A stretch of 64,000 nucleotides of DNA from positions 33,056 to 97,055 of the forward strand of contig JAICDB010000001.1 of the NCBI GenBank assembly GCA_020063565.1. Reading direction: 5' to 3'. Position numbers and translations under genes: made by a program. The stretch is from Clostridiales bacterium. GTDB lineage: Bacteria; Bacillota; DSM-16504; Desulfitibacterales; JAICDB01. Shown here piece by piece: positions 10,314 to 55,096 of the stretch. The notes beneath the pieces are model-generated. The model saw only the letters and a program-made list of their open reading frames with translations. It searched no databases and was not told the DNA's origin. Each line of letters opens with the position of its first letter. Position 1 is the stretch's first letter.

Positions 10314-10316
10314 ATT

Positions 10317-11162: not shown

Positions 11163-11274
11163 AAATCTACTCCTTCCTTAGTGATTGATTTTTCAGTACT
11201 GATTCTTGACTTTGAAAAAAAGCTTATTAAATACCTCTGCCAAAAAATGAATAGCGATTCATAATTTCACTAGT

Positions 11275-11303
11275 ATTGTATTCCCTACCCCGGTATTTGT
11301 CAA
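11275..11303 (-). promoter_or_regulatory. Sigma-A-type promoter for the mqn operon
   Basis: On the minus strand: TTGACA (11298-11303), 17-nt spacer, TACAAT (11275-11280). Confidence 0.5.
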
Positions 11304-11357
11304 CAGTTTAAGGTATGTTAGAGCCCCGAGAAGCAGTAAGTACTATAGAAAATTGCT

Positions 11358-36259: not shown

Positions 36260-36310
36260 ATTTTTTTTAGTATTGATTAAATTCGCTGCTGATACTAAAA
36301 TTATAGATAA

Positions 36311-36337
36311 CAAATATATAATATTGCAAACTTACAA
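36311..36337 (+). promoter_or_regulatory. Promoter/operator element upstream of yihQ, shared with the pfk-operon leader
   Basis: CAAATATATAATATTGCAAACTTACAA contains a TATAAT (36317-36322). It shares 18 of 19 nt with 43114-43132, and AATATTGCAAA.TTACAAA with 43251-43269. Confidence 0.55.
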
Positions 36338-36358
36338 AAAATTGTCAGGGGGTCCAAA

Positions 36359-38368
36359 ATGATTAAAGTAAAAGAAGATGGTAAGCTGCTGGTTATTGAT
36401 TTTAATGGATTTGAAATTGTAAAACATTCAAATGAGATTCCTTTCCTGCACGTTGGAAGCGGTACTGCAAATTATGACATGCTTAATGGAAACTTTGAAA
36501 TTGAAGAACATTTAAATGAAAAAATTGCCTTAACCGATTACACTGTTTTGGAAGAAAAAGCTACTTCAGTTAAAGTGAAATTTTCAAGAAACGAAGTGTA
36601 CGCGGTAACTGTAAACTTTACAGAAGTTGATGGAAGGCTACATATTGATTTCCAAGAAAAACCGAAAGGCCTGAATAGAAGCTGGATAAAAATAGCTGCA
36701 CAGGAAAATGAACATATATACGGGTGCGGTGAACAGTTTTCTGAGCTTGACCTCAAGGGCAAAAAGGTTCCCTTATGGGTATCGGAGCAGGGGGTGGGCA
36801 GAAATAAAAAGGATTACCTGACCTTCCAGGCAGATGTACATGCCGGGGCAGGTGGTGACTGGTATACTACCTATTATCCCCAGCCTACTTTTGTGTCCTC
36901 TAAAAACTACTGGTGCCATGTAGAAGACTCCCACTATATGGAATTTGACTTTAGAAATGATTTGTACCATGAGCTATGTGTCTGGAGCATTCCTTCAAAG
37001 GTTATCATATCTAAAAAAAATACTGCCCTGGAAGTTCTTGAAGATTTAACAGCTTACCTGGGAAGGCAGCCTGAACTTCCTGACTGGTCCTATGATGGAG
37101 TATGGCTGGGATTACAGGGTGGTACGGAAACTGTACTTAAAAAACTTGAAAATGCTCAAAATCACGGCCTGAAGGTTGTTGCCTTATGGTGTCAAGACTG
37201 GGAAGGTAAGCGCATAACTGACTTTGGAAAACGACTTTTCTGGAATTGGGAATACCACAAAGAAATGTATCCGGATCTACCACAAACGATTAAAGAGCTC
37301 AATGAAAAGGGGATTAAGTTTTTAGGCTATATCAACACCTTCCTTGCTACTGATGGTGAAATGTATAAGGAAGCCACTAAAAAAGGTTATATAGTAAAAG
37401 ATAATGAAGGCAAAGATTATGAGGGAGCCAAGGATATGCCTGCTGTACTAATGGACTTTACTAATCCGGAAGCAGTTAATTGGATTAAAAATATAATTAA
37501 AGAAAATATGATAGGGATTGGTTTATCAGGCTGGATGTGTGATTTTGGGGAGTACCTGCCAACCGATGCTGTATTATACTCCGGTGAAAGTGCAGAAAGT
37601 TATCATAACAAGTATCCTGCAGAGTGGGCAAAGATAAATAGGGAAGCTGTCGAAGAAGCAGGCAAATTGGGCGAGGTAGTTTTCTTTACCAGGGCCGGTT
37701 ATACCGGTACTTCCAGATATTCACTTTTAATGTGGGCAGGTGACCAAACTGTTAACTGGAGTTTAGATGATGGTCTTGCCTCTGTAATACCTGCTGCTCT
37801 CTCCTTGGGAATGAGTGGCTTTGGAATATCCCATTCTGATATTGGTGGTTACACCTCACTTTACGGTGTAAAAAGGACCAAGGAACTGTTTATGAGATGG
37901 GCCGAAATGGCAGCATTCACACCTGTTATGAGAACCCATGAAGGAAACAGGCCTGATGACTGCTGGCAGTTTGACTCAGATGAAGAGACCTTATTACATT
38001 TTGCAAAGATGAGCAAAATCTATACCCATCTCAAGCCATACATTAAAGACGTAGTAAAAGAAAATGCGGAAAAGGGAATTCCCGCACAACGCCATCCGTA
38101 TATCCATTATGAAAATGATGAGGAACTTCACAAGTTGAAATACCAGTACCTCTTCGGCAGGGATTTGATGGTAGCCCCTGTTTATGAGGAAAATAAAACT
38201 AGCCGCAAGCTGTATCTGCCGGAAGATAATTGGATCCATGTTTGGACAGGAAAAGAATATGGTAAAGGGTATCATGAAGTTGAAGCTCCCTTAGGAGAAA
38301 TTCCCGTATTCTATAGGAAGGGCTCACAGTATGAAGACCTCTTTAAGCAAATTGCTGATATAAAGTAG
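36359..38368 (+). CDS. yihQ: GH31 sulfoquinovosidase (YihQ-type)
   Basis: The 669-aa ORF is colinear with my recollection of E. coli YihQ over the whole length: HIYGCGEQFS, PLWVSEQGVGRNK, LGRQPELPDW, QDWEGKRITDFGKRLFWNW (R-x-x-W sulfonate-pocket pair), GWMCDFGEYLPTD (nucleophile Asp), MWAGDQTVNWSLDDGLASV (acid/base Asp), HSDIGGYTS (pocket Tyr), THEGNRP. Confidence 0.8.
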   Translation: MIKVKEDGKLLVIDFNGFEIVKHSNEIPFLHVGSGTANYDMLNGNFEIEEHLNEKIALTDYTVLEEKATSVKVKFSRNEVYAVTVNFTEVDGRLHIDFQEKPKGLNRSWIKIAAQENEHIYGCGEQFSELDLKGKKVPLWVSEQGVGRNKKDYLTFQADVHAGAGGDWYTTYYPQPTFVSSKNYWCHVEDSHYMEFDFRNDLYHELCVWSIPSKVIISKKNTALEVLEDLTAYLGRQPELPDWSYDGVWLGLQGGTETVLKKLENAQNHGLKVVALWCQDWEGKRITDFGKRLFWNWEYHKEMYPDLPQTIKELNEKGIKFLGYINTFLATDGEMYKEATKKGYIVKDNEGKDYEGAKDMPAVLMDFTNPEAVNWIKNIIKENMIGIGLSGWMCDFGEYLPTDAVLYSGESAESYHNKYPAEWAKINREAVEEAGKLGEVVFFTRAGYTGTSRYSLLMWAGDQTVNWSLDDGLASVIPAALSLGMSGFGISHSDIGGYTSLYGVKRTKELFMRWAEMAAFTPVMRTHEGNRPDDCWQFDSDEETLLHFAKMSKIYTHLKPYIKDVVKENAEKGIPAQRHPYIHYENDEELHKLKYQYLFGRDLMVAPVYEENKTSRKLYLPEDNWIHVWTGKEYGKGYHEVEAPLGEIPVFYRKGSQYEDLFKQIADIK

Positions 38369-38382
38369 TTTTTATAACATGA

Positions 38383-38416
38383 AAAGCCAACTCACGCCTG
38401 TGTGGGTTGGCTTTTA
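38383..38416. terminator. Bidirectional terminator between yihQ and the convergent transglycosylase gene
   Basis: AAAAGCCAACTCAC / GTGGGTTGGCTTTT stem with flanking A/T runs. Confidence 0.75.
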
Positions 38417-38428
38417 ATATTGAGTTTT

Positions 38429-39085
38429 TTAATTTTGCTTTTGTTTTTCTACAGATTTTAAAATCGTTCTGGAATAAGCGCTTCTGCTGGTACCATGATA
38501 TTCCTTATATTTTTTTAGACCGTACATTCCCCTGTTATAGGCTGTTAAAGCATCATGCCAGTTATGATATTTTTGATATAAATAGTTTAAATACCAGAGT
38601 CCCATTTTCATATTTAATTCAATGTTGTATGCCATATCATAAGTAAAATCTTTTATGCCAATTTTTTCGGCAAGCCAGGGGCTTGTATTGTCGTTAAGCT
38701 GGAAAAGTCCGCGATCGTATGTATCGTTCCATTCATTATAACAAGTTAATTTAGGATCAAAGTTACTTTCCAGCCTAACAACCTCATATGCCAGTTCCAA
38801 AGGTATATTATACGATGCCGCAATATTTTGTAGTGTCCGGATAAGCTCAACGGAAGTACCAGCTTTTTCAGCCAGTTGCTTTTGTTTTTCTGTGATATAA
38901 GTATAAGTTTCCAAGGTGTTTTTTTCTATGTTTTTTAATTGTGTATCCAGCATGCTTACCTTCTCTTCTATTTTTTGTAAGCTGCCTTCAATAACTTGTG
39001 GTGACCTATTAAATGCCAGGTTTGCAATTGGAAAAAATAAGATCAATGTTACAAAGACGGTCACCAAAAGCCACACTTTTTTCAT
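38429..39085 (-). CDS. Membrane-anchored lytic transglycosylase (SLT domain) with coiled-coil linker
   Basis: 218-aa ORF with an N-terminal TM helix and the SLT motifs VRLESNFDP (catalytic Glu-Ser) and GLFQLN. Confidence 0.8.
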   Translation of the reverse strand: MKKVWLLVTVFVTLILFFPIANLAFNRSPQVIEGSLQKIEEKVSMLDTQLKNIEKNTLETYTYITEKQKQLAEKAGTSVELIRTLQNIAASYNIPLELAYEVVRLESNFDPKLTCYNEWNDTYDRGLFQLNDNTSPWLAEKIGIKDFTYDMAYNIELNMKMGLWYLNYLYQKYHNWHDALTAYNRGMYGLKKYKEYHGTSRSAYSRTILKSVEKQKQN

Positions 39086-39369
39086 TTTAGTTAACCTCCT
39101 TAATTTTCCATATAAGGTAATTTTTTATTATTAACAAAGACGCATATCAGTTTAACATAATTTACTACTACTGGCAATGGATAAATCTTGCAGAATTTTT
39201 AGCATAAATTTAATAAAAAAACAAGGAGCAAAAAAATCTAAAGATATTTCCAATTGTTCCAAAATGCTATACTCCGACGTGTAATATTTATTGTAAACCT
39301 TGATTTTATAAGGAATAATTTATACAATATGGAATTGTAATTTAGATGTATTAGGGAGGCGTATTTTAA

Positions 39370-40440
39370 TTGACTAAAGTTTGGTTTACTTCTGTAAAAG
39401 AAAATGCTTCTACACATGAAATTTCGGAAAAGGTACTTAAATTATATAATGAAGCGGATTTTCAGAAGATATTTACCAAAGATGAGTTTACTGCTGTAAA
39501 AATACATTTTGGAGAGAAAAACAATACAGGCCATATCAAACCTGAGTGGATTAAGGCTTTATTAGAAAAAATCAAAGAAAGCGGCTGCAAACCTTTTTTA
39601 ACCGATACAAATACTTTGTATAAGGGTCAGCGTCAAAATTCGGTTGATCATTTAATGCAAGCCTATGAACACGGTTTTACCATAGAAAATGTAGGAGTAC
39701 CTGTGATTATCGCTGACGGACTTCTTTCTAAAAATTTTTCCGAAGTGACAATTGAGGGGAAACACTTTAACTCTGTCAAAATTGCAAATGATATTTTACA
39801 CAGCGAATCACTCGTTGTTTTAAGCCATATGACCGGACATGTCTTAAGCGGACTTGGTGCAGCCATTAAAAACCTGGCCATGGGTGCTGCTCCTCGAAGT
39901 GGTAAACAAGTGCAGCATGCTGATGTAAGACCGGAGGTTAAAGGAGAAAAATGTAAAGCGTGTAGAAAGTGTATCGAGTGGTGTCCAAAGGATGCAATAG
40001 AAATCTATGACGGTGTTGCAGTTATTGATGTTGAGAAATGTTATGGCTGTGGAGAGTGTATTGCTACCTGCCGTTATGAAGCAATAGATTTTTCCTTTAA
40101 ATCATCAAGCGGACTTTTACAGGAAAAAATGGCCGAATATGCTTTCGGTGCTGTAAGGGATAAAGAGGGGAAAGTCTGCTATTTCAATTTTTTAACCCAT
40201 TTTACCAAAGAATGTGACTGTTATGGGAAAGCCCAGGACAAGGAAACTGAGGACATCGGTATTTTAGCTTCATACGATCCTGTGGCTATCGACCAGGCTT
40301 CAGTTGACCTCTTGAAGGATAGAGCAGGAGAGGACCTCCTGAGAAAACTCTGGCCGGAAAATGATTATAATATCCAACTTGGTCATGCAGAAAAAATTGG
40401 ACTGGGAACTAGAGACTATGAACTTATACAAATAAATTAA
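39370..40440 (+). CDS. DUF362-family protein with inserted 2x[4Fe-4S] ferredoxin domain
   Basis: 356-aa ORF with TTG start after a GGGAGG RBS. CKACRKCIEWCPKDAI and CYGCGECIATCRYEAI are embedded in a DUF362-like scaffold. Confidence 0.65.
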   Translation: MTKVWFTSVKENASTHEISEKVLKLYNEADFQKIFTKDEFTAVKIHFGEKNNTGHIKPEWIKALLEKIKESGCKPFLTDTNTLYKGQRQNSVDHLMQAYEHGFTIENVGVPVIIADGLLSKNFSEVTIEGKHFNSVKIANDILHSESLVVLSHMTGHVLSGLGAAIKNLAMGAAPRSGKQVQHADVRPEVKGEKCKACRKCIEWCPKDAIEIYDGVAVIDVEKCYGCGECIATCRYEAIDFSFKSSSGLLQEKMAEYAFGAVRDKEGKVCYFNFLTHFTKECDCYGKAQDKETEDIGILASYDPVAIDQASVDLLKDRAGEDLLRKLWPENDYNIQLGHAEKIGLGTRDYELIQIN

Positions 40441-40443
40441 CTA

Positions 40444-40472
40444 AAAAGCGCCGAAAAGCCCGGCGCTTTTTG
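40444..40472. terminator. Bidirectional terminator
   Basis: AAAAGCGCCG / CGGCGCTTTT stem with a 7-nt loop, flanked by A and T runs. Confidence 0.75.
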
Positions 40473-40482
40473 ATTGTTTAAC

Positions 40483-41100
40483 TTATAAGCAAAATTCTTT
40501 AATTCTTTTTTTCTGTAATTCGCCATCTAAATAAATACTAAACATATCATCTTTTTTTTCAATTTTTTGGAGAGCTTCTTTTGCTTCAGGTGTACCAATG
40601 CTATGTAAAGCAAAGGCAGCAAATCCTTTGATGGTTTGATCTTTAGAATTTAAAAACTGTTCTATTTCAGGGATATACTCTTCGATTAACTCCGGAGCTT
40701 TTAAAGCTATTCTTCCTAAAGCCCAGAGGACGTACCCTCTGATGTTTTCATCTTCCAAAAAACAGGCTAAATTAGAAATAAAGTTTTGATATTCCTTTGG
40801 ATTATGGCGAATAATCTCTCCAATAACCTGAGCTGAACTCCAGGGAGTACCACCTGATTCATCATTAAGGCTCCAAAAAAATCTCCGTATTATATCTCTG
40901 ACCAATTCCGGTTTTTGCTGAGATATACTACCACAAACCAGCCCCAGCGCTTCAATAGCTCGCCAGGTAAGAACCGAATTTAAGTCGTATAGAAATACCT
41001 GCAGGTATTTCAAGGTAGATCTTTTTTGAATTCCTAATTGTACGATTCCGGCAAAGTCTTTTTCTTCTAGCATTTTCTTGAGGGTATTTTTTAAACTCAT
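40483..41100 (-). CDS. HEAT/ARM-like repeat protein, unknown function
   Basis: 205-aa ORF, all-helical, with repeated WRAIEALG / LWALGRIA / AAFALHSIG HEAT-type signatures. Confidence 0.5.
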   Translation of the reverse strand: MSLKNTLKKMLEEKDFAGIVQLGIQKRSTLKYLQVFLYDLNSVLTWRAIEALGLVCGSISQQKPELVRDIIRRFFWSLNDESGGTPWSSAQVIGEIIRHNPKEYQNFISNLACFLEDENIRGYVLWALGRIALKAPELIEEYIPEIEQFLNSKDQTIKGFAAFALHSIGTPEAKEALQKIEKKDDMFSIYLDGELQKKRIKEFCL

Positions 41101-41189
41101 CCTAGAATCACCCTTTAATGATAGTAATAGTAACTTATACTATTACTATTCTTCAAAAGTTTAAAAATACCTGCTTTATTGATATTATC

Positions 41190-42029
41190 TTAATCGTTTT
41201 CTATGTTTTTTATAATTTCACCATATATTTCTGGACGGCGAGACTCTAGATAAAATCTATTTCGCATTAAGTCGGATTTATTCTTGCGTATGGAGTCTAA
41301 CTTGCTGCTTTTCAGAGTAACAACCAGCATTTCTTCGTCTTTATCTGAAGTTTCAGCAATTAAATTTCCTAAAGGATCAAATACCATACACCCTCCTTGG
41401 TAATTGATACCTTCGCCGTTATCTCCATAATGATTACAGGTAACAAGATATAATGAATTGTCATAGGCCCTGGCAGGTAAATATTTTAGCCAACTTTCTT
41501 TTCTTTTTTCTAAAGACATAGGAGTGGCATGGGGCAAAAAAACAACCTCTGCACCTTGAAGTGCTTGGATAGTGGTTACTTCAGGAAAGTGGCAGTCGAA
41601 ACATAATTGAATTCCAAATTTAGCCTTTGAATATGAAAAAGTTTTTACTTTGTCTGCTGGTCTGAAATAATGTTGTTCCGTAACTCCAAGGTGTGTTTTA
41701 CGGTATTTATCTATTCTTCCATCAGGATAAATAACTGCTTGAGTAATAAAAGGCTTGCTTTCAGATTTCTCTATTAAACCTGCTAAAATGATGATATTGT
41801 GTTTTTCAGATAATCCTTGCAGGTAGTTGCAACTTTGACCGTGAAGGGGTTCAGCCAGATCCTTGGCTTTTTTTAAAGTATAGCCTTGAATACTTAATTC
41901 CGGAAAGCAGATAATATCTACAGTTTGAGCGTGAGCTTTCTTAATAAATTCTTCCATTTTTTTAAGATTTTTAGAAATTTCCCCTACAGATGACTGCATC
42001 TGTACTGCCGCAATCCTAACATCTTCCAT
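41190..42029 (-). CDS. Carbon-nitrogen hydrolase (nitrilase superfamily)
   Basis: 279-aa ORF. The Glu-Lys-Cys triad contexts are CFPELSIQGY, YRKTHL and GIQLCFDCHFPE. Confidence 0.8.
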   Translation of the reverse strand: MEDVRIAAVQMQSSVGEISKNLKKMEEFIKKAHAQTVDIICFPELSIQGYTLKKAKDLAEPLHGQSCNYLQGLSEKHNIIILAGLIEKSESKPFITQAVIYPDGRIDKYRKTHLGVTEQHYFRPADKVKTFSYSKAKFGIQLCFDCHFPEVTTIQALQGAEVVFLPHATPMSLEKRKESWLKYLPARAYDNSLYLVTCNHYGDNGEGINYQGGCMVFDPLGNLIAETSDKDEEMLVVTLKSSKLDSIRKNKSDLMRNRFYLESRRPEIYGEIIKNIEND

Positions 42030-42184
42030 AACTTTACGCTCCCAACATAAAGATGTGATAATCTTAGTTTATAATAAAGTAGAAAGTTAAGCAAAAAAAA
42101 GAGAAATTATATTTACCAGGATAATTAAAAAAATGAGAACCTTAAAAAAAATTCAAATTGGAATTAAATGGTTGCAAAATTTTC

Positions 42185-42237
42185 TTGAAATATGTGTTCT
42201 TTACATTATAATAAAAGTAAAGTTTGTAATATTACAA
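42185..42237 (+). promoter_or_regulatory. gntR promoter with a perfect palindromic operator just downstream of the -10
   Basis: TTGAAA (42185-42190), 16-nt spacer, TATAAT (42207-42212), then the 14-bp perfect palindrome TTGTAATATTACAA (42224-42237), which fits the GntR-type GT..AC architecture. Confidence 0.65.
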
Positions 42238-42258
42238 AAAATTGGGGAGCGGGAGACC

Positions 42259-43035
42259 ATGCAAAATAGTATTCAGAATTTAGATGCTATGCCATTACAC
42301 TACCGTATTGCATATGAATTGAGAAATAAGCTCCAGAAGGGCTATTGGAAGCCCGGTGACCTGTTTCCTACTGATAAGCAGCTTATGGAACAGTATAATG
42401 TGAGCAGTACTACAGTGCGCAGAGCTATATACGAATTAGTACAGGAAGGATGGCTTGAAAGAAAGCCTGGTAAAGGAACATTTGTAAGAAATCAAATGGT
42501 GGAAAACCTTCGTAAGCTGACAGGTTTCTTTGAAGAAATTCAATCTAAAGGTATGGTTCCGAGTGCAGAAATTATCAAAAGTGAGATTGTAACGGTAGAT
42601 AATAATTTATTGCAGGAAATTCCTCTTTTGCAGGATTTCAATGTTTCTAAGGTATATTTAATTAAAAAAATTCATAAAATGAACAATACACCTGTTGTTT
42701 ATGTGAAAAGTTTTTGGCCTGTTGATATAGGAACTGAAATTGCAAAATATGATCTAACTAAGCAAGGTGTATATAGCATTGTTCAAGATGAATTGGGGAT
42801 TTTACTGAGAGAGGCGTCCCAGACAATTTCAGCCGGTTTAGCTGATAAAGAAGAAGCTGAGGCGTTAAATATAGCGGAAAAGGCTCCAATTTTAGTTATG
42901 AACAGGGCTACCTACAGCAATGAAAGGCTTTTAGAGGTTGCTGTAAACTCCTACAGGGCGGATTTATATAGTTATAAAATTATCTTAAGTCGTAATGATA
43001 TCAAAAAGAATGCAGGCATGGTATTAAATGCCTAA
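42259..43035 (+). CDS. GntR-family (HutC/UTRA subfamily) transcriptional regulator
   Basis: The ORF was trimmed to ATG 42259 (GGGGAGCGGGAG RBS), because the longer ORF would include its own promoter and operator. The wHTH is LFPTDKQLMEQYNVSSTTVRRAIYELVQEGWLERKPGKGTFV, followed by a UTRA-like C-terminal domain. Confidence 0.85.
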   Translation: MQNSIQNLDAMPLHYRIAYELRNKLQKGYWKPGDLFPTDKQLMEQYNVSSTTVRRAIYELVQEGWLERKPGKGTFVRNQMVENLRKLTGFFEEIQSKGMVPSAEIIKSEIVTVDNNLLQEIPLLQDFNVSKVYLIKKIHKMNNTPVVYVKSFWPVDIGTEIAKYDLTKQGVYSIVQDELGILLREASQTISAGLADKEEAEALNIAEKAPILVMNRATYSNERLLEVAVNSYRADLYSYKIILSRNDIKKNAGMVLNA

Positions 43036-43075
43036 AATAAATTTTTTTGTATTGTCCAAAAATTACAGAAATGCA

Positions 43076-43105
43076 TTGACAGTACAATCAATTCAACTTT
43101 ATAAT
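43076..43105 (+). promoter_or_regulatory. Candidate promoter of the pfk-aldolase-ABC-isomerase operon
   Basis: TTGACA (43076-43081), 18-nt spacer, TATAAT (43100-43105). A second TATAAT at 43120-43125 lies inside the element shared with yihQ. Confidence 0.5.
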
Positions 43106-43201
43106 TATGTTAGCAAATATATAATATTACAATATTTCATTTTAATTAAAAATATGGTGTTATAATTACTTTAAGGGTTTATTAATTTTTTTAATTAAAT
43201 A

Positions 43202-43268
43202 TTGTAATATTACAAATTGTAATATTACAAAAGAATTTTTGCAATAATTAAATATTGCAAAATTACAA
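43202..43268 (+). promoter_or_regulatory. Operator array: two tandem perfect TTGTAATATTACAA palindromes plus a degenerate third copy and a 10-bp-arm inverted repeat
   Basis: The perfect copies are at 43202-43215 and 43217-43230, a 15-bp period. TTGCAAAATTACAA lies at 43255-43268. TTTTGCAATA / TATTGCAAAA is an inverted repeat at 43237-43262. Confidence 0.7.
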
Positions 43269-43327
43269 ATGTACAAATTTACAACTTACAACTTTAATTA
43301 AAATTTTTCTGCATGAGGTGATTCACT

Positions 43328-44524
43328 TTGGTTAAAGCAATTGAAGGAAACCTTCTGGTAGGTCAATCAGGAGGGCCCACACCGGTAATTAATGCTAGTT
43401 TAGCGGGAGTTATCTCTGAAGCACAAAGACATAGTAACGTCAAAACTATCTATGGAATGGAGAATGGAATTGAAGGTTTGCTACAAGGCAAGCTTAAAAA
43501 GATTCCAGAAATGTCAGAAAAAAATATCCAATTGCTGGCATCCACACCTGCCTCTGCTTTGGGAAGCTGTAGATATAAGGTGCAGGATGACGATTACCCT
43601 AAGCTTTTGCAAATATTTAAAGAAAATAATATCAGGTACTTCTTTTACATTGGTGGAAACGACTCCATGGATACATGCAACAAAATAGCCAAGCTCGCAG
43701 AGGCTGAGGGCTATGAAATGTATGTTATGGGAGTGCCTAAAACAATTGATAATGACTTGCCTCTCACTGATCACTGCCCCGGATTTGGAAGTGCAGCTCG
43801 TTTTACTGCAGTTAGTACTCTAGGAACAGGTCGCGATCTTGAAGCAATGAAAACATTTGATGATGTAACCATTGTGGAAATTATGGGTCGCCATGCTGGC
43901 TGGCTGGCTGCTTCCTCAGCGCTTTTGAAAAGGGATGTCAAAGATGCGCCACACTTAATTTACTTACCTGAAAGAACCTTTAAAATGGATAAATTCATAG
44001 AAGATGTAAAGACAGTTCATAAGGAATTAGGATATGTATTTGTAGCAATAGGAGAAGGCATTAGAGATGAAAGTGGAGAGTTTATTGGAGCAAAGAATGC
44101 TGTAAAAGATGCCTTCGGACATATTGCAATAGCCCTTAGTGAAGGACCTGCAGCTTATCTGGCAAGGACAGTAAACAAAGAACTTGGCCTGCAAGCTCGC
44201 TACAATCGAAGTGGTACAATTCAGCGAGCTTATTCAGAATCTGTCTCTGATGCTGATAGAAATGAAGCATTTATGGTTGGACAAAAGGCAGTAGAGCTTG
44301 CAGTAAAAGGTGAAACAGGAAAGATGGTAACCCTGGTTAGGGGAGAGGGAACGGAGTATAAGTGTACAACAGGAACAGCTTCCCTTGAGAAGGTGGCTAA
44401 TGTTGAAAAAGTAGTTCCAGACGAATTTATTAACGCTGAAGGCAATTTTGTAACTGAAGCATTTAAGGAATACGCATTGCCACTACTTGGAAGTAATTTG
44501 CCGGAGTATTATAGATTTAAGTAA
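43328..44524 (+). CDS. PfkA-family sugar-phosphate/sulfosugar 1-kinase with PPi-type signature residues
   Basis: 398-aa ORF with TTG start 8 nt after GAGGTG. PFK motifs are SGGPTPVINA, IGGNDS (E. coli IGGDGS), GVPKTIDND (E. coli GLPGTIDND) and EIMGRHAGW. Confidence 0.75.
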   Translation: MVKAIEGNLLVGQSGGPTPVINASLAGVISEAQRHSNVKTIYGMENGIEGLLQGKLKKIPEMSEKNIQLLASTPASALGSCRYKVQDDDYPKLLQIFKENNIRYFFYIGGNDSMDTCNKIAKLAEAEGYEMYVMGVPKTIDNDLPLTDHCPGFGSAARFTAVSTLGTGRDLEAMKTFDDVTIVEIMGRHAGWLAASSALLKRDVKDAPHLIYLPERTFKMDKFIEDVKTVHKELGYVFVAIGEGIRDESGEFIGAKNAVKDAFGHIAIALSEGPAAYLARTVNKELGLQARYNRSGTIQRAYSESVSDADRNEAFMVGQKAVELAVKGETGKMVTLVRGEGTEYKCTTGTASLEKVANVEKVVPDEFINAEGNFVTEAFKEYALPLLGSNLPEYYRFK

Positions 44525-44560
44525 TAGCAACTAGATAAAATTTTTGGGAGAGGTGTTAGT

Positions 44561-45412
44561 ATGAGTTTAGTGACATTAAAAGAAGTAATGGAGCCAAAAG
44601 ACGAAGCATTTGCTGTTGGAGCATTTAGTACTTATGACTTAAGCAGCGCTCTGGGCATAGTAGAAGGAGCTGAAGCAGTTAACCTGCCTGTTATTGCAAT
44701 GATGGGTGCACCGGTTCTTAATGTACCTGGTAATGAGAAAGTTGCTGAAACATTGATTTCATTAGCTAAAATGTCAAGTGTACCTGTTGTTGTGCATTTG
44801 GACCATGCCAAAGATTTTGCAACTTGCATGAAAGCTATTAAGTTAGGATTCAGTTCGGTTATGATTGATGGTTCGACATTAAGTCTGGAAGAAAATATTG
44901 CAGTTACCAATAAAGTAACTGAGGCTGCAAAAGCAGTAGGTGTTTCAGTAGAAGCAGAACTGGGAGCGCTTGCCGGAATTGAAGACGGAGAAGAGGTTAA
45001 GGCTCAAAAAATGACAAATCCCGAGCACATGAAAACATTTTTAGAAGCAACGGATGTTGACGGGTTAGCTGTTTCAATCGGTAATGCCCATGGATTGTAC
45101 AAGGGTGAACCTAACCTGAACTTTGAATTACTTGAAAAGCTGAACGACTTAAGTGATGTTCCCCTCATAATGCATGGTGGAACCGGTCTTACTCAAGAAC
45201 AGTTTGCCAAGGGAATTCAACTGGGAATTAAAAAGATCAATATTGGAACTGAGATCAAAAAGACAACAATTGAAACCTTTATAGAAACACACGGCAAAAA
45301 TGAAAGCGCCTGGGATATGATTGGTATTCCGAAGGCGTGCAGGGAAGCTATTTCTAAAGTTGTTGCTGACAAATTGAAATTTTATAGAAGCGGTTGGAAG
45401 GAACTGGTTTAG
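44561..45412 (+). CDS. Class II (metal-dependent) ketose-bisphosphate aldolase, FbaA/GatY/KbaY family
   Basis: 283-aa ORF with VVHLDHAKD, EAELG, IGNAHG and MHGGTG, which are characteristic of class II FBP/tagatose-bisphosphate aldolases. Confidence 0.8.
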   Translation: MSLVTLKEVMEPKDEAFAVGAFSTYDLSSALGIVEGAEAVNLPVIAMMGAPVLNVPGNEKVAETLISLAKMSSVPVVVHLDHAKDFATCMKAIKLGFSSVMIDGSTLSLEENIAVTNKVTEAAKAVGVSVEAELGALAGIEDGEEVKAQKMTNPEHMKTFLEATDVDGLAVSIGNAHGLYKGEPNLNFELLEKLNDLSDVPLIMHGGTGLTQEQFAKGIQLGIKKINIGTEIKKTTIETFIETHGKNESAWDMIGIPKACREAISKVVADKLKFYRSGWKELV

Positions 45413-45463
45413 TTGGTTGTTGACCAGTAATTGGTTGTGCCAAGCATGAAAGGGAGTGTAAAT

Positions 45464-46570
45464 ATGGCAGAAGTTAAGCTTCAGGGGATATACAAGAGGT
45501 TTAAGGATACAGTTGCAGTATCAAACTTTAACCTGGAAATCAAAGACGGTGAATTCATAGTTCTGGTAGGACCTTCCGGATGTGGGAAAAGTACAACCCT
45601 GAGAATGGTTGCCGGTTTGGAACAACCTTCAGAAGGTAAAATTTATATTGGTGATAAGGACGTAACCTATGCTGAACCCAAAAACAGAGATATAGCAATG
45701 GTATTTCAGGATTATGCGCTATATCCTCATATGAACGTATTTAAGAATATGGCATTTGGATTGCAGTTAAGAAAAATGCCCAAGGACGAAATAAAGAAGA
45801 GGGTGGAGACTGCAGCAGAACGCTTGGGAATTTCACATCTGTTGCATAGAACTCCGAGACAGCTATCAGGTGGTCAGCGTCAGAGGGTAGCTTTGGGAAG
45901 ATCGATTGTAAGGGATCCCCAGGTATTCTTGATGGACGAGCCGCTTTCTAACCTTGACGCTAAATTAAGGGTGCAAATGAGGGCTGAAATAGTTAAGCTC
46001 CAGAAAGGTTTAAATACAACTACTATCTATGTAACTCATGATCAGGTAGAAGCCATGACAATGGGTGATAGGATAGTTGTAATGAAGGATGGCTTTATGC
46101 AGCAAGTAGGTACTCCTTCAGAGATTTATCATGAACCTGCCAACATGTTTGTAGCTGGCTTTGTAGGTTCTCCTAGCATGAACTTTATTGAGGGAGAATT
46201 TGTTCAAAAGGACGGTAAATGCTTCTTTACAGCTCAAGGTATCGAAGTAGAATTACCCGGAAAGCTTTCCGACAAATCATTGTCTTCTAAGTCAGTAGTG
46301 CTTGGCATTCGTCCTGAGGATATTAGGGTAGATGTGGAAAAAACAGACAACTTAACATCTCCTGTGGAATGTAAAGTTGAATTAATTGAAGATCTAGGCG
46401 CCGAAGAAATTGTCTTTCTAAAAACAAAGGGTGGCCAAGAATTTAAAGCACGTATTTCAAGCGACCTTAGTAAAGCTCAAGCTGGTAATAATGTAAATGC
46501 ATATTTCAAGCTTAATAAGATTCATATCTTTGATGCTGAAGAAGGCAGTAAGGTACCCCTTTCTGCTTAA
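45464..46570 (+). CDS. Sugar ABC importer ATPase (MsmX/UgpC/MalK type)
   Basis: The ORF was trimmed to MAEVKLQGIYKRF after an AAAGGGAG RBS. It has Walker [10 protein letters not shown], signature LSGGQRQR, Walker B FLMDEPLSNLD and a C-terminal regulatory (TOBE-like) domain. Confidence 0.9.
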   Translation: MAEVKLQGIYKRFKDTVAVSNFNLEIKDGEFIVLVGPSGCGKSTTLRMVAGLEQPSEGKIYIGDKDVTYAEPKNRDIAMVFQDYALYPHMNVFKNMAFGLQLRKMPKDEIKKRVETAAERLGISHLLHRTPRQLSGGQRQRVALGRSIVRDPQVFLMDEPLSNLDAKLRVQMRAEIVKLQKGLNTTTIYVTHDQVEAMTMGDRIVVMKDGFMQQVGTPSEIYHEPANMFVAGFVGSPSMNFIEGEFVQKDGKCFFTAQGIEVELPGKLSDKSLSSKSVVLGIRPEDIRVDVEKTDNLTSPVECKVELIEDLGAEEIVFLKTKGGQEFKARISSDLSKAQAGNNVNAYFKLNKIHIFDAEEGSKVPLSA

Positions 46571-46696
46571 AAATCTTTAGACTTCATAAAGGGGGTGGGG
46601 TAAAGAGTAAAAGATAACAAGTCAGTCTTAATAAAATTCTAGGAATGTAAATTACGGGACGATTTAATCTATTTAATTTATGGGAGGGTGAACAAT

Positions 46697-47962
46697 TTGA
46701 ACTTCAAGAAGCTGAGTGTGTTGGCAATTGTAGTATTGTTGGTTGGTGCATTTGTTGTAGGTTGTGGTGGAGGAAATGATGAACCTGCAGATCAAGGCGC
46801 AGATTCCGGTGAAAAACAAGTAACAATTAGATTTGCTCACTGGCGTGGAGAAGATAAGGAAGCATTTGAAAAAGTAATTGCTAAGTTCAATGAAGAATAT
46901 CCAAACATCAAAGTTCAGCAGGATATTAGTGGCTCAGAGCAGTACAGAGCAAAAATACAAGCAGAATTGCAATCAGATGCCGGACCTGACGTTTTCACTA
47001 CTTTCCCCGGTGCACATTTTGCTACTTTACAGGAAGCAGGAGTATATGCCGATCTTTCAGGCGCTGAATTCCTGGATCGTTTCTCCCCTCACCTGTTACT
47101 GGCAGGACAGGCTGATGGAAAACAATATGCAGTTCCATACCAGCTGGTATTCAATATCCCCGTATACAATAAAGGGTTATTTGAAAAAGCAGGTGTAGAG
47201 CCTGCAGACAGTTGGGAAGGATTCTTGGAAATGTGTCAGACTTTAAAGGATAACGGTATTACACCTATCATCTTTGACAGTGAAATTGGCCCCGGCCAAT
47301 TTATGAACCCAATGTTAATGAACAATATGCCTACCGATGATGCCTTAACCAGGGTAGAAAAAGGCGAGCTTAAGTTGACAGATGACTGGTTCGTTAAAAC
47401 TCTTGCTCAATTTAAAGAACTTAAGGACAAAGGATTTATGCAGGATGACGTACTTGGAACCAGAAAAGCTGGCGCTGCTGCGTTATTTGCTCAGGAACAA
47501 GGCGCCATGTTAGCTCAAGGGTCATATATGATGGCATCTAACAAACAGCAAAACCCCGATATCAAGCAGGGACTACTTGCACCAATAACAGTACCGGCAG
47601 ATCAAGCAAAGTATGAAGGTATCCATACTTCAACATTTATGATTGGTATTAATGCAAAATCCGAAAAACAAGAAGCTGCTAAGAAGTTTATGGAATTCTT
47701 GTTTAGACCGGAAATTTCCGCAATGTATGCTAATGTAACAGGACAAATGTTGACAGTTAATGGTGTTGAATATGAATCGCCTGAATTAAATGAACAGGCT
47801 AAGTGGCTAGAGAAGAAGACATTATTCCAGCCTAGATACACTTTGACAGTTCAAGAAGTTGAGGATGCAATAGTAAACTCAATTAAAGACGTATTAGGTG
47901 GTATGTCGCCTGAAGAAGCTGCTGCTAAGGCTCAGGAAGAAGTTGAAAGATCTATTAAATAA
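46697..47962 (+). CDS. Extracellular solute-binding lipoprotein (carbohydrate family 1)
   Basis: TTG 46697 lies 9 nt after GGGAGG. The lipoprotein signal has the lipobox FVVGC, and the body is a typical sugar SBP. Confidence 0.85.
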   Translation: MNFKKLSVLAIVVLLVGAFVVGCGGGNDEPADQGADSGEKQVTIRFAHWRGEDKEAFEKVIAKFNEEYPNIKVQQDISGSEQYRAKIQAELQSDAGPDVFTTFPGAHFATLQEAGVYADLSGAEFLDRFSPHLLLAGQADGKQYAVPYQLVFNIPVYNKGLFEKAGVEPADSWEGFLEMCQTLKDNGITPIIFDSEIGPGQFMNPMLMNNMPTDDALTRVEKGELKLTDDWFVKTLAQFKELKDKGFMQDDVLGTRKAGAAALFAQEQGAMLAQGSYMMASNKQQNPDIKQGLLAPITVPADQAKYEGIHTSTFMIGINAKSEKQEAAKKFMEFLFRPEISAMYANVTGQMLTVNGVEYESPELNEQAKWLEKKTLFQPRYTLTVQEVEDAIVNSIKDVLGGMSPEEAAAKAQEEVERSIK

Positions 47963-48040
47963 GGTTTAGAGGGATACTTTCAGCGACAAGAGAGAGGGCA
48001 TGTACCTCTCTCTTATCCTGATAACTAAGGAGGAAAAAAT

Positions 48041-48919
48041 ATGAAAAAGTACTGGGGGCTCTTACCATTTATCATACCAGGGGTCATATTATATACAATC
48101 TTTTTTGCCATACCCTTAGTTTCCTCACTGGCTCTTAGTTTTACAGACTGGAACGGTATATCCCCTGATTATAATTTTGTTGGCTTAAGCAATTATGTTG
48201 AGATGATTACAGATGACCCTATTTTCCATCAAACATTTGGTAACAACCTAAAATACATGTTTTTTGTAGTTATCTTCCAGACATTATTTGCACTTATTTT
48301 TGCCATGTTTTTGGCTAAAAACAGTAAACTCAATGTTTTCTACAGGGCGCTATTCTTTTTCCCCACTGTTATCGCTTCAGTTTCGGTGGCTTTTATCTGG
48401 ATCTTTGTTTATGATCCAAGCATCGGTTCATTAAATACAATCCTTAAATTATTTGGCCTGGACTTTTTGAAACAGTCCTGGTTGGGGGACAAAAACATTG
48501 CAATTTACAGCCTTGCTATAACACAGGTTTGGATGCATACTGGACAGGTGATGATAATCTTTATAGCAGGTTTACAATCTATACCAAAATCACTGTATGA
48601 GGTTGCCAGAATAGAAGGAGCATCAAGGTGGCAGACCTTCCGTAATGTAACATGGCCGCTTTTAGCTCCTGCTGCAACAATTGTTGTAGCATATACCACA
48701 TTGCAGTCATTCAAGGCATTTGACCTCATTCTGGCAATGACCGATGGTGGACCATCCTATGCAACTGAAATATTATCACTCTTTATTTACCACGAAGCAT
48801 TTAGAAACTTCAAATTTGGCTATGCTGCAGCATCAGCGGTGATCTTCTTAATTATCGTATCATTGATTACAATAATTCAATTTAGAATTTTAAATGCCAA
48901 TAAGGTAACCTACAATTAA
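48041..48919 (+). CDS. Sugar ABC permease (UgpA/MalF type)
   Basis: 292-aa ORF with six TM helices and the EAA-loop sequence EVARIEGASRWQTFRNVTWPLL. Confidence 0.9.
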   Translation: MKKYWGLLPFIIPGVILYTIFFAIPLVSSLALSFTDWNGISPDYNFVGLSNYVEMITDDPIFHQTFGNNLKYMFFVVIFQTLFALIFAMFLAKNSKLNVFYRALFFFPTVIASVSVAFIWIFVYDPSIGSLNTILKLFGLDFLKQSWLGDKNIAIYSLAITQVWMHTGQVMIIFIAGLQSIPKSLYEVARIEGASRWQTFRNVTWPLLAPAATIVVAYTTLQSFKAFDLILAMTDGGPSYATEILSLFIYHEAFRNFKFGYAAASAVIFLIIVSLITIIQFRILNANKVTYN

Positions 48920-48933
48920 GGGGTGTATATCAA

Positions 48934-49806
48934 GTGAGTAATTCAAAATTAGATTTACAAAAAGCAGACAAAAAACCAAAAGAAAATATTACGAAGGTTG
49001 ATATTTGGAGACAGTTTCCTCTCCTCATTTATGCAATAATTATCATTACACCTCTTTCACTGGTATTTTTTGCAACTTTTAAAAACCTTAAGCAGCTATA
49101 TTCAGATCCTTTGGGGGTACCTGAAAGTTGGAGCCTTGCCAACTATAAAGCGCTCTTTGCAAATGAGAATATGTTGATATACTTTAAAAACAGTGTAATA
49201 GTAACGTGTATTTCTGTTTTCAGTATTCTTTTACTTGCAAGTATGATTGCCTATGCAATAGTAAGATTACCGAAGTGGATAGGAAATATAGTCTTTGGGT
49301 TTGTAGTAGTGGGAATGATGGTACCTACTCAGGTGAATATGATACCACAGTATCTTTTACTGGATAGACTTAATCTATTGGATAAGCATCTGGGGTTAAT
49401 CTGCGTAACGGTGGCTACATTTTTACCTATTGCAGTATTTATTTTAACAGGATTTATGAAAACTTTGCCGAAAGGTTTAATTGAAGCCGCAAGCATCGAT
49501 GGCGCCTCACACTGGCAAATTTACTCAAGGGTGATGTTGCCTTTATCCGGTCCGTCTCTTGCTACGACAGCTATTTTCTGCTTTGTTATTGTCTGGAACG
49601 ATCTTCTTTATCCGCTGTTGTTCATAAAGTCGGACAGCTTAAAGACAATGCCCCTGGCGCTGCTAGAATTCCAGGGTCAGTATTTGACAAACTACCCAAT
49701 GATTTTCTCGGGAGTAGTGGTAGCTTCTATTCCGATGATTATAATTTATGTTTTCCTTCAGCGCTACTTTATTGCCGGTATGACAGCAGGATCTATGAAA
49801 GGATAA
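48934..49806 (+). CDS. Sugar ABC permease (UgpE/MalG type)
   Basis: 290-aa ORF with the EAA-loop sequence EAASIDGASHWQIYSRVMLPL. Confidence 0.9.
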   Translation: MSNSKLDLQKADKKPKENITKVDIWRQFPLLIYAIIIITPLSLVFFATFKNLKQLYSDPLGVPESWSLANYKALFANENMLIYFKNSVIVTCISVFSILLLASMIAYAIVRLPKWIGNIVFGFVVVGMMVPTQVNMIPQYLLLDRLNLLDKHLGLICVTVATFLPIAVFILTGFMKTLPKGLIEAASIDGASHWQIYSRVMLPLSGPSLATTAIFCFVIVWNDLLYPLLFIKSDSLKTMPLALLEFQGQYLTNYPMIFSGVVVASIPMIIIYVFLQRYFIAGMTAGSMKG

Positions 49807-49932
49807 GTAGAAGTATATTTATATTATGTAAGATTAATGTAATGTCCGGGAACTGTGGAGGGTTTCACTGTTTCTGGAGCTGTGTTAAATGCAAAGTTTG
49901 TAATAATACAAGATTTCTTAGGAGGGCAGTTT

Positions 49933-51273
49933 ATGGAAACCTTAAAACCTGTATACCTGCCAATGGGTAGAACTACATTCCATATGGAAAGTGCCACTGA
50001 TTACTACAACCGTTCCTGTAAAGTAATCAAAGAACTTGCCCCGGGGGCAGAAATGCCGCAAGAATTACTTACTGATTTAGATATGTTAAACAACTATCTT
50101 GATGAAATCAAAAATAAGGATATAGATATTGCAGTTGTTCAAAGTACTACCTTTGTAGATGCTACCTTTACAATAGAAATCGTCAGAAAGCTTTCCTGTC
50201 CCGTATTAGTATGGTGTGTGCGAGAACCCGTTATTGATGGTAGTCGCCTCAGATTAAACTCTCTAACCGGTGGTTTTGCTGCCGGCAATACTTTAAGTAC
50301 CTTTGGCAGAACATTTGATTTTGTATTCGGTAATCCCGAAGAGGAACAAGTGCAGAAAAAATTATCTGCATACTTCAAAGCTGCATCTGTTGTAAAGGGA
50401 TTGAAGAACTTGACTTTAGGGGTAGTAGGAAATGTACCTCCGGGCTTTTTCTTTGGAGAAGAACTCAGTATGAATCTCTTAAATGTCATAGGTGCAAAAT
50501 TGGAACGCTTAGACCTTAACAGTCTGATTCAAGAGGCGAAAGAATTGAAAACCGGTGAGTATGAAGAGGCACTTGCAGAATTGAAGGAGAAAATCTTCGG
50601 CATTGAAGAAATTGAAGAGGAACAAGTAGATAAAAACGCTCGCTTTAGAACAGTTCTTAAAAAACATGTGGAAGAAAAAGGAATTAAGGCAATTGCTAGT
50701 CGTTGCTGGCCTACAGTATTCCAGGAGTATAATGCTGCAATTTGTGCCACCCTTTCTTTATTTACTGAAGAAGGAATTGTATCTTCCTGTGAAGCTGATA
50801 TTGGCGGCGCAATCAGCATGTATATCCAGAAACAAATTACAGGAGAACCTCCATATTTCGGAGACCCTGTTTCATTAGATGAAGAAAAGAATTCTATTAT
50901 TTACTGGCATTGTGGTGCAGGAGCTTGTTCACTTGCTAGAACCGATACAGGCGCCCGCGCAGGAAGACATCCTAACCGTAAGCTTGGGCTGTCATTGGAA
51001 TTTGGTCTTAAGGACGGCAGGGTTACAGTTTGCCGCTTCGGTAAGGGGCCAAACGGTTACCGTCTTTTTATCATGGCTGGTGAAGCGCTGGATGAACCTC
51101 AAAAGTTTCTTGGAACATCTGTTGAAGTACGCCCTGACGGAAATGCAGCTGAAATTGTAAATTCAGCAATTAATGAAGGTTGGGAACCTCACTTTTCAGT
51201 GGTTTACGGAGATATAACCGAGGAGTTAAAGGCTGTAGCCAAACTATTAAACATTGAAGTTGTAGAGTATTAA
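49933..51273 (+). CDS. L-fucose/L-arabinose isomerase-family aldose-ketose isomerase (short form)
   Basis: The ORF was trimmed to METLKPVYLP after an AGGAGGG RBS. The family resemblance (SSCEADIGGA, YWHCGAG, GWEPHFSVVYGD) is recalled by eye and not verified. Confidence 0.6.
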   Translation: METLKPVYLPMGRTTFHMESATDYYNRSCKVIKELAPGAEMPQELLTDLDMLNNYLDEIKNKDIDIAVVQSTTFVDATFTIEIVRKLSCPVLVWCVREPVIDGSRLRLNSLTGGFAAGNTLSTFGRTFDFVFGNPEEEQVQKKLSAYFKAASVVKGLKNLTLGVVGNVPPGFFFGEELSMNLLNVIGAKLERLDLNSLIQEAKELKTGEYEEALAELKEKIFGIEEIEEEQVDKNARFRTVLKKHVEEKGIKAIASRCWPTVFQEYNAAICATLSLFTEEGIVSSCEADIGGAISMYIQKQITGEPPYFGDPVSLDEEKNSIIYWHCGAGACSLARTDTGARAGRHPNRKLGLSLEFGLKDGRVTVCRFGKGPNGYRLFIMAGEALDEPQKFLGTSVEVRPDGNAAEIVNSAINEGWEPHFSVVYGDITEELKAVAKLLNIEVVEY

Positions 51274-51288
51274 GAGAGGGGACCTGTG

Positions 51289-52401: not shown

Positions 52402-52410
52402 GTTATTTTC

Positions 52411-52468
52411 AGGCCGCCCCCTTTCCTCCTAATCCTCCTCCCGGGATTGGGGGCTGGCTGTTTTTTTA
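52411..52468 (+). terminator. Strong intrinsic terminator inside the operon, between the M24-like gene and the moaD-like gene
   Basis: CAGGCCGCCCCC ... GGGGGCTGGCTG stem enclosing a C/T-rich loop, followed by TTTTTTT. Confidence 0.65.
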
Positions 52469-52497
52469 ATTTCACTTTTTCATTGGGGGTTTTTTTG

Positions 52498-52722
52498 ATG
52501 ATTACCGTTAAATTTAGCCCTGGAACAAAAGCCTATAAAAAACACGGTTCCCGGATTGAAATGACTTGGCAAGACGGAACTATTGATGATTTACTTGCCA
52601 AATTGGCAGTTGACAAAAGGGAAGTAGGTAGTGTTCTTGTCAATAATTCTCCCAAAAATTTAGATGAAAAATTGCAGGATAACTGTGAAGTTTATATCCT
52701 CCCTGTAATTTGCGGTGGTTAA
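52498..52722 (+). CDS. ThiS/MoaD-like beta-grasp protein ending in Gly-Gly
   Basis: 74-aa ORF trimmed to MITVKF. The C-terminus is ...LPVICGG. It lies immediately upstream of the ferredoxin and AOR genes, as in AOR maturation/accessory arrangements. Confidence 0.6.
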   Translation: MITVKFSPGTKAYKKHGSRIEMTWQDGTIDDLLAKLAVDKREVGSVLVNNSPKNLDEKLQDNCEVYILPVICGG

Positions 52723-52752
52723 TAGAAACTGGAAGATTAGGGTGGTGAAATA

Positions 52753-55030: not shown

Positions 55031-55096
55031 TATAATATCGGCCGGTAGCCCTTTTATGGGCACCGGCTGTAATTATGGTAGAAAAGAAGGGTTAAA

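Follow-up and report, generated by a model that had tools for sequence, protein, structure and literature searches.

We analysed short AT-rich repeats that recur in front of sulfoquinovose (SQ) genes in a 64,000-nucleotide stretch of the genome of a Clostridiales bacterium (contig JAICDB010000001.1, positions 33,056 to 97,055; C16:33056-97055 in our contig numbering), which we refer to as the window. The repeats are, with a probability that we put at about 0.85, operators of the locally encoded GntR/HutC-type regulator (258 amino acids, 42259-43035, plus strand), which is predicted to be a pathway-specific repressor of a sulfo-Embden-Meyerhof-Parnas 2 (sulfo-EMP2) type SQ catabolic cluster. 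An initial annotation, made from the sequence of the window, had proposed that this protein represses its own gene, yihQ and the kinase-aldolase operon. The proposal of one such regulon is supported by the rarity of the motif, by a weight matrix trained on relatives only, by orthologous loci and by a genome (G003) in which regulator and targets are unlinked. Within the present genome, four intergenic regions hold essentially all of the motif, which is found at the best promoter-like sites or a short way downstream of them. Moreover, it is conserved in sequence and position before the orthologous regulator and SQ genes in many genomes, including those in which these genes are not linked.

The 14-mer TTGTAATATTACAA, on which the proposal had been built, is present without mismatch at 42224-42237, 43202-43215 and 43217-43230, the last two copies being spaced by 15 bp. 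Also verified in the sequence were its relatives TTGCAAAATTACAA (43255-43268) and TTGCAAACTTACAA (36324-36337), and the longer strings CAAATATATAATATTACAA (43114-43132) and CAAATATATAATATTGCAA (36311-36329) are identical at 18 of 19 nucleotides, as had been described. With up to two mismatches allowed, the 14-mer matches six times in the window against 0.71 expected, and none of 100 shuffles gave six matches. The whole genome sequence (2,361,211 bp, 39% GC, 29 contigs, 81% complete) contains three exact copies, all at the SQ locus, and five copies with at most one mismatch, four of them at the locus. At up to two mismatches there are 45 matches, six of which fall within the four target regions before yihQ, gntR, the kinase-aldolase operon and the isomerase gene (746 bp summed; 0.014 expected; binomial P ~8e-15). 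Since these counts are so low and so local, the motif is not a common element of the intergenic DNA of this organism. One further copy with a single mismatch, TTGTAATAATACAA at 49898-49911, had been missed by the initial annotation; it lies within the 126-bp gap preceding the isomerase gene. Taken by itself the yihQ 14-mer is unconvincing, as it is a three-mismatch match and one of 430 such matches in the genome, so that what makes this site significant is solely the longer conserved motif together with the comparative data.

Judged from the sequence comparisons, the conserved element is not the 14-mer alone, but a core AATATT-RC-AATATT within a lattice of 8-bp period, (RY-AATATT)n. The 14-mer is a real repeat, but as a conserved unit it does not stand, since it results from reading this lattice in a register shifted by 4 bp. 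Two symmetric 14-bp readings lie 4 bp apart, the TTGT-AATATT-ACAA that had been annotated and the AATA-TTRCAA-TATT of the conserved core, and both registers are found as perfect long palindromes in relatives (28 bp at locus L036, 22 bp at L043; related loci and genomes carry our numbers L and G). Of the exact core AATATTRCAATATT the genome has just two copies, both inside the operon leader. At up to two mismatches there are 158 genome sites, of which seven lie in the four regions (0.05 expected; P ~1e-13).

The longer motif was also evaluated with a position weight matrix (PWM), which was built on 27 sites from 11 other genomes, with none from this genome, and scanned over all 2.36 Mb. Six of the top 20 sites fall inside the 746 bp, which has a chance probability of ~4e-17. 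The first rank is held by the primary operator O1 at 43119 (26.2 bits) and the second by array A at 43194 (23.9 bits), both in the operon leader. The yihQ site at 36316 has rank 5 (19.6 bits), the isomerase site at 49898 rank 8 (17.7 bits), array B at 43247 rank 9 (17.6 bits) and the gntR site at 42216 rank 17 (15.7 bits).

We also considered the remaining high scorers as further regulon members and rejected them. They lie within coding sequences (C8:45976, C4:177193, C27:202033 and sites on C12, C15 and C25) or beside unrelated genes, namely C4:134865 upstream of murA and C10:92806, which is more than 500 nt from a prephenate dehydratase gene. Because the other high-scoring sites are placed in this way, the regulon is local. 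The sole intergenic near-consensus site outside the locus beside a plausible transport gene is C27:6617, where AATATTGCAATTTT, which differs from the core at one position, precedes by ~130 nt a gene for a 539-amino-acid protein of the sodium:solute symporter (SSF) family; it is possibly a stray site.

Several operators lie in the leader of the kinase-aldolase operon (215 nt, or 229 nt in the folding test). The promoter P1 of this operon (TTGACA-18-TATAAT, 43076-43105, plus strand) agrees with the consensus at 12/12 positions and is the top promoter-like site of the 20-kb scan, and its -35 and -10 line up with blocks that do not vary among 9 orthologous promoters. O1, ATATAATATTACAATATTTCAT, occupies 43119-43140 on the plus strand, about +7 to +28 of P1, with the exact core AATATTACAATATT at 43123-43136. 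This core is one of only two exact ones in the genome, and relatives keep the same distance between -10 and operator. The initial annotation had noted part of this site as a string shared with the yihQ region (43114-43132); it is not a degenerate copy, but the consensus primary operator, 17 nt past P1, and the best PWM site of the genome. Further downstream lie array A, AATATT-GT-AATATT-AC-AAATT-GT-AATATT-AC (43194-43230), which includes both tandem 14-mers as well as the second exact core (43198-43211, minus strand), and array B, AATATT-GC-AAAATT-AC-AAATGT-AC-AAATTT-AC-AACTT-AC (43247-43290), which consists of five 8-bp units, includes TTGCAAAATTACAA and opens with a 26-mer that shares 92% identity with the one opening array A. 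Direct reading of the sequence reveals, in the interval from O1 to array A, a perfect extended -10, TGtTATAAT (43158-43166, plus strand), without a recognisable -35. It is a speculative idea that this may be a second promoter, which would be controlled only by the downstream arrays.

The gntR promoter (TTGAAA-16-TATAAT, 42185-42212, plus strand; 11/12) is the second-best promoter-like site in 36-56 kb. It is followed by the putative auto-operator, a lattice AAGTTT-GT-AATATT-AC-AA at 42216-42237, in which the perfect 14-mer spans roughly positions +5 to +18 relative to the inferred transcription start site. In front of yihQ, the probable promoter is TTGATT-17-TAAAAT (36273-36301, plus strand; promoter scan 9/12), and a TTGAAT-16-(T/G)TAAAT arrangement likewise precedes the GH31 gene in L018, L022, L023 and L028. 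The yihQ operator ATATAATATTGCAAACTTACAA (36316-36337, plus strand) has its core AATATTGCAAACTT at 36320-36333 and includes TTGCAAACTTACAA. We do not prefer the TATAAT at 36317-36322 as the yihQ -10, because relatives keep TTGAAT-16-TTAAAT further upstream and the TATAAT belongs to an operator half-site; it is probably part of the operator. In the related loci, a site lies 20-55 nt upstream of the GH31 gene in all five cases (5/5), as well as in G003. The fourth site, TTGTAATAATACAAGATTTCTT (49898-49919, plus strand), is one mismatch from the 14-mer and located between a weak TTTCAC-16-TTAAAT and the ribosome binding site (RBS) of the isomerase gene. It may add an isomerase sub-operon as a fourth target, which is less certain than the others.

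The 5' untranslated regions of gntR and yihQ (42232-42245 and 36332-36345) have TTACAAAAAATTG(G/T) in common directly before the RBS, and the G003 gntR carries CCAAAAATTGTCGAGGAG at the equivalent place. This string could be an operator flank or a translation-initiation context.

Orthologues of the regulator with 45-60% identity are found in Peptococcaceae-like metagenome-assembled genomes (MAGs), Desulfitispora alkaliphila, Desulfosporosinus, Desulfitobacterium, Desulforamulus and Moorella. They mostly adjoin homologues of the aldolase, kinase, transporter, isomerase, M24, aldehyde:ferredoxin oxidoreductase (AOR) and GH31 genes. In more than 20 genomes the motif lies between promoter and start codon of the gntR, GH31, aldolase/kinase, transporter or AOR operons. 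An unbiased k-mer count found AATATTACAA in 23/32 upstream regions, and the consensus of 55 sites is ttTAT-AATATT-RC-AATATT-a.At. Operon, transporter and GH31 promoters of relatives bear TAATATTACAATATTATA, and gntR promoters bear the reverse orientation, TTGTAATATTGTAATA; occurrence in both orientations is as expected for the site of a DNA-binding protein. In the Desulfosporosinus/Desulfitobacterium/Desulforamulus branch the centre is GC, so that AATATTGCAATATT becomes a perfect palindrome. It is extended to 22 bp at L043, and the 28-bp palindrome of L036 contains three hexamers. When ten orthologous promoters are aligned, just three blocks are invariant: TTGAC of the -35, ATAAT of the -10 and AATATT-AC-AATATT, the latter 16-17 nt past the -10, and P1 of the window conforms exactly to this pattern. 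The motif is also present upstream of gntR, a divergent aldolase gene, MalK or Fer4 at loci outside the PWM training (L027, L031, L035-37, L043, L045, L048). Overall, in 17/32 related loci the 300 nt preceding the regulator gene include a site.

In G003, the regulator is encoded in a Fer4-AOR-PFK-GntR operon on contig C2, the promoter of which bears TTGTAAATATACAATATTGCAAAA. The FBA, GH31, MalK-SBP-permease, isomerase, M24 and EamA genes are on contig C6, with the motif in both intergenic regions there, one copy being exact. In G001, an exact site is located between the divergent MalK and FBA genes at a distance of 18 kb from gntR, and in the MAG BRH_c20a a Fer4-AOR operon away from the SQ cluster carries a 24.7-bit site after a TTGACA promoter. 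As these unlinked targets bear the motif, it follows the SQ genes and the regulator and not their adjacency. Other exact sites in G001 and G003, three in coding sequences and one upstream of a histidine kinase gene, are uninformative.

The regulator itself has the domains expected for such a role. Its N-terminal GntR-type winged helix-turn-helix (PF00392, residues 16-76, E = 3e-19) and its C-terminal UTRA domain with chorismate-lyase fold (PF07702, residues 97-237, E = 7e-25) were confirmed, and it could be aligned end to end with the NagR structures 4U0V and 2WV0. The closest solved structures are NagR/YvoA (1e-29) and DasR (7e-21). It has been shown that NagR binds GTGG-N6-CCAC, reading G-5 via Arg38, G-4 via Arg48 and G-7 via Gly69 (PMC4333415). 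In the alignment these columns are Lys40, Ser50 and Gly71 of our protein, and they are invariant in five orthologues. Lysine and serine in place of the two arginines fit a TTGT half-site with a single G in 4-6-4 geometry. By this analogy the contact residues would favour the register of the initial annotation, TTGT-AATATT-ACAA, for base-specific contacts. In the effector pocket, Arg133 of NagR corresponds to an invariant Lys137 and Arg135 to His139, and the helix N-terminus Ser-Ile-Tyr is Gly-Val-Tyr (Gly170-x-Tyr172). The predicted pocket is weakly consistent with an anionic sugar ligand, for which SQ, sulfofructose (SF) and sulfofructose phosphate (SFP) are candidates.

Our closest comparison is therefore with Bacillus subtilis NagR (YvoA) and Streptomyces DasR, two GntR/HutC repressors that control the use of amino sugars and bind dre sites. 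They share the regulator's winged helix-turn-helix and UTRA architecture and likewise are local repressors with several operators close to promoters. Like GTGG-TCTAGA-CCAC of the NagR dre site, TTGT-AATATT-ACAA has 4-bp half-sites 6 bp apart (PMC4333415). NagR holds its anionic sugar effector between two helix N-termini and basic residues, and this arrangement is partly conserved. However, the identity is only ~30%, the operator described here is almost pure A/T with one G per half-site, its sites are set in 8-bp periodic arrays of 2-7 units, and the targets are SQ genes.

The operator positions would imply repression by promoter occlusion or roadblock, with autoregulation. Their location downstream of the -10 is consistent with repression, and a dimeric repressor with effector release is predicted. 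In the absence of inducer, regulator dimers would occupy the (RY-AATATT)n lattice, with each promoter having a single site between +5 and +30 and the operon leader two additional downstream arrays. The bound dimers may then block open-complex formation, promoter escape or elongation. Binding of an anionic pathway sugar (SQ, SF or SF-1-phosphate) to the UTRA domain would free the DNA-binding domains, as in NagR, and this release would de-repress yihQ, gntR, the kinase-aldolase-transporter operon and the isomerase-AOR-exporter genes.

A number of observations weigh against this interpretation or limit its reach. Conservation is strongest in the AT hexamers and the central C, not in the GT/AC boxes, which makes the exact recognition mode uncertain. 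The HutC subfamily operator consensus is NyGTMTAKACNy, with GT and AC 4 nt apart (PMC4494728), and with its 6-nt spacing TTGT-AATATT-ACAA differs from most HutC motifs and does not agree with this consensus. As exceptions within the subfamily are documented (FarR, NagQ and SdhR; PMC4494728), the mismatch concerns the type of operator and not the membership of the protein. The window's own gntR site reaches just 15.7 bits on the PWM of the relatives. In 15 of the 32 related loci, nothing in the 300 nt before the regulator gene scores above 15 bits, so that the motif is not universal in the protein family. These 15 comprise Moorella/Neomoorella and other distant homologues (42-50% identity), the paralogue loci L020/L027, L030, L043 with sites only downstream of gntR, and L019, where the stretch is masked. 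Of 61 relatives, 3/5 genomes with an orthologue and 5/56 without one contain the exact core, a difference that is only modestly significant (P = 0.014). The isomerase site has no convincing promoter, and relatives show no counterpart before their isomerase gene, for which reason we regard this site as less certain.

It could be argued that the motif is a true operator, but bound by another transcription factor encoded elsewhere, while the adjacent GntR protein recognises something else. At L020 and L027 a GntR paralogue with 59-60% identity has a motif-free promoter of its own, which indicates that close homologues can use other sites, and most of the G003 targets are not linked to the regulator gene. 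However, the HutC orthologue is the only regulator gene consistently present in motif-bearing loci, in 17 of 32 cases with the motif directly upstream. Furthermore, the motif has GntR-type TTGT...ACAA boxes in a NagR-like 4-6-4 geometry, and the G003 operon that contains the regulator (Fer4-AOR-PFK-GntR) has the motif at its own promoter. Overall, we consider a different binding protein unlikely. Even less probable is a role at the RNA level, in which AU-rich hairpins in the 5' leaders would tune stability, attenuation or translation. All sites are downstream of likely transcription start sites and hence transcribed, and the operon leader (229 nt) folds better than its shuffled versions (z = -2.6; 2/200 shuffles equally good), because the tandem palindromes can pair. 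Nevertheless, the motif has opposite orientation in the gntR and operon leaders, many copies such as AATATTACAATATT are not self-complementary as RNA hairpins, and it is a sequence at fixed spacing from the -10 that is conserved, not a structure. No U-tract terminator follows the hairpins. An Rfam scan of 36200-50000 gave no match in the leaders, only weak ones on a bidirectional terminator at about 40.4 kb, and a riboswitch or known RNA leader was rejected on this result.

The motif might finally have no regulatory meaning and have arisen because promoter DNA is AT-rich, with TATAAT-like boxes and UP elements, or because a segment was duplicated locally. The genome has a GC content of 39% with AT-rich intergenic DNA, the yihQ 14-mer is among 430 three-mismatch matches, and the 26-mer is duplicated between arrays A and B. 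Such an origin is nonetheless hard to reconcile with the rarity of the motif genome-wide and its extreme local enrichment, or with its retention across genera with diverged flanks and at unlinked targets. We regard it as the least credible of the explanations considered, and it is effectively refuted by the PWM ranks, the exact-core count and the promoter alignment.

Under the preferred reading, in which the sites are operators of the local HutC protein, their periodicity deserves attention. Arrays of ATTACAA or AATATT-RY units with an 8-bp period are present in the window (43251-43290), in L031 (9900-9955) and in L029 (6908-6960). The lag-8 autocorrelation has z = 4.0 for the leader with array B (five units) and z = 6.7 for L031 (seven units), and L029 is also periodic. 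These are more units than one dimer can use, which suggests multi-dimer loading. A tentative extension, which we rate as possible but rather doubtful, is that at least two dimers or a filament-like oligomer would load cooperatively on (RY-AATATT)n rather than on a single palindrome, with inverted and direct half-sites being equivalent owing to the self-complementary hexamer, and that the number of units (2-7, depending on promoter and species) would set the strength of repression; the motif would then mark an anaerobic SQ regulon with a ferredoxin-linked tungsten-type AOR as the sulfolactaldehyde (SLA)-oxidising step. If true, the multi-dimer lattice would be an operator logic undescribed for HutC proteins. 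At the family level, the ATTACAA units resemble the tandem direct repeats (TGTATTAWTT and TGGTATT) of the HutC members FarR/MngR and NagQ and the extra weaker boxes 7-12 nt from the palindrome centre, which are precedents in this family for non-canonical operators (PMC4494728). Unlike in FarR/NagQ, the period is 8 bp, the self-complementary AATATT lets inverted and direct readings coexist, and the arrays have up to 5-7 units.

In the literature searched, CsqR (YihW) is the sole characterised SQ regulator (PMC10991401, PMC9594981). This repressor of the yih cluster of E. coli is, like the protein proposed here, pathway-specific and auto-regulated and acts on SQ glycolysis genes including yihQ. 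In contrast, it belongs to the DeoR and not the GntR/HutC family, its operator is unrelated, and its cluster is a Gram-negative sulfo-EMP one with non-orthologous enzymes. A GntR-family gene has been annotated inside the sulfo-transaldolase (sulfo-TAL) SQ cluster of Bacillus aryabhattai SOS1 (PMC7491151), a Firmicute SQ cluster that we liken to ours by annotation only. In the literature searched, no operator, effector or regulon is described for the SOS1 regulator, no operator or characterised regulator was found for Gram-positive sulfo-EMP2 clusters, and a search with the motif strings gave nothing relevant. We view the system as a new case of ordinary regulation, a HutC local repressor with operator and regulon, with nothing unusual about it beyond its 8-bp periodic arrays. 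Its value lies in the fact that in Gram-positive and anaerobic sulfo-EMP2, sulfo-TAL and sulfo-transketolase clusters of the literature searched the GntR gene has so far merely been annotated. The defined core AATATT-RC-AATATT provides a testable handle on the pathway inducer and a sequence marker to delimit SQ regulons in uncultured Peptococcaceae and Desulfosporosinus-like anaerobes. Moreover, the operator is regulon-based, independent evidence that the physically separate yihQ joins the same pathway.

The genes of the locus fit this assignment. The GH31 sulfoquinovosidase gene (36359-38368, plus strand) encodes a YihQ orthologue with 983 bits to NCBIfam NF007746 (PRK10426, E. coli YihQ equivalog; cut-off 553) and Pfam GH31 domains. 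It is separated by four unrelated genes (38429-42029) from the regulator gene. The operon at 43328-49806 (plus strand) encodes, according to Pfam and NCBIfam, a SqiK-like PFK-family kinase, a SqiA-like class II aldolase, a MalK ATPase, a substrate-binding protein (SBP) and two permeases. It is followed at 49933-55993 (plus strand) by genes for a candidate SQ isomerase (SftI/SqvD-like, FucI-like), an M24-fold protein, a ThiS-like protein, a ferredoxin, a tungsten-type AOR and an EamA exporter. SqiK belongs to PF00365 and SqiA to PF01116, and the sulfo-EMP2 enzyme set consists of SqvD, SqiK, SqiA and YihQ (PMC9594981). The adjacent kinase (PF00365, 1e-57) and aldolase (PF01116, 8e-81) genes are assigned by family, with the substrate specificity being predicted. 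For the isomerase, NF048012 (SftI) is the only NCBIfam match, at 536 bits under the equivalog cut-off of 700, and Pfam gives only Fucose_iso_C. By gene content the cluster is of the sulfo-EMP2 type (YihQ, the candidate SqvD/SftI, SqiK, SqiA).

An AOR module is present where sulfo-EMP2 clusters usually have an SLA dehydrogenase or reductase. The M24-fold protein and the Fer4/AOR module fill the places of SqvB or the YihR mutarotase and of the NAD(P)-dependent SLA reductase/dehydrogenase. A profile search of the genome gave no match to PF16161 (DUF4867, SqvB), but control genomes were equally silent and the genome is 81% complete. The M24-fold protein is conserved, adjoining the isomerase here and in relatives. 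Fer4-AOR operons that are not next to SQ genes have the operator just past a TTGACA promoter in L014 (G003 C2, ~6235-6262) and L027 (17017-17038). Since these unlinked operons bear the operator, the tungsten-type AOR module is a conserved regulon member in other genomes. This gives the same regulon-based evidence for them and bears on the proposed ferredoxin-dependent SLA oxidation; no paper linking SLA with an aldehyde:ferredoxin oxidoreductase was found in the literature searched. In the window, no operator precedes the AOR module itself, which would have to rely on read-through or the site at 49898.

Some related loci show further peculiarities. L020 and L027 (~4250-12850) contain a paralogous cluster (GntR 59-60%, PFK ~70%, aldolase ~40% and isomerase ~30% identical) with its own ABC transporter and its own gntR without the motif. 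The likely role of this cluster is in a related pathway that handles a different sugar and is controlled through a diverged operator. In L013 (G029, Desulfitispora alkaliphila), where GH31 and isomerase genes are not nearby, an open reading frame of 262 amino acids without Pfam match lies on the opposite strand between the aldolase and kinase genes (10074-10862) and is a possible mobile-element insertion. In L024, a related MAG, the transporter genes are bordered at ~3900-4080 and ~8500-8680 by long tandem runs of heptamers that resemble CAACTA(C/A/T) or its complement; these repeats are unrelated to the operator.

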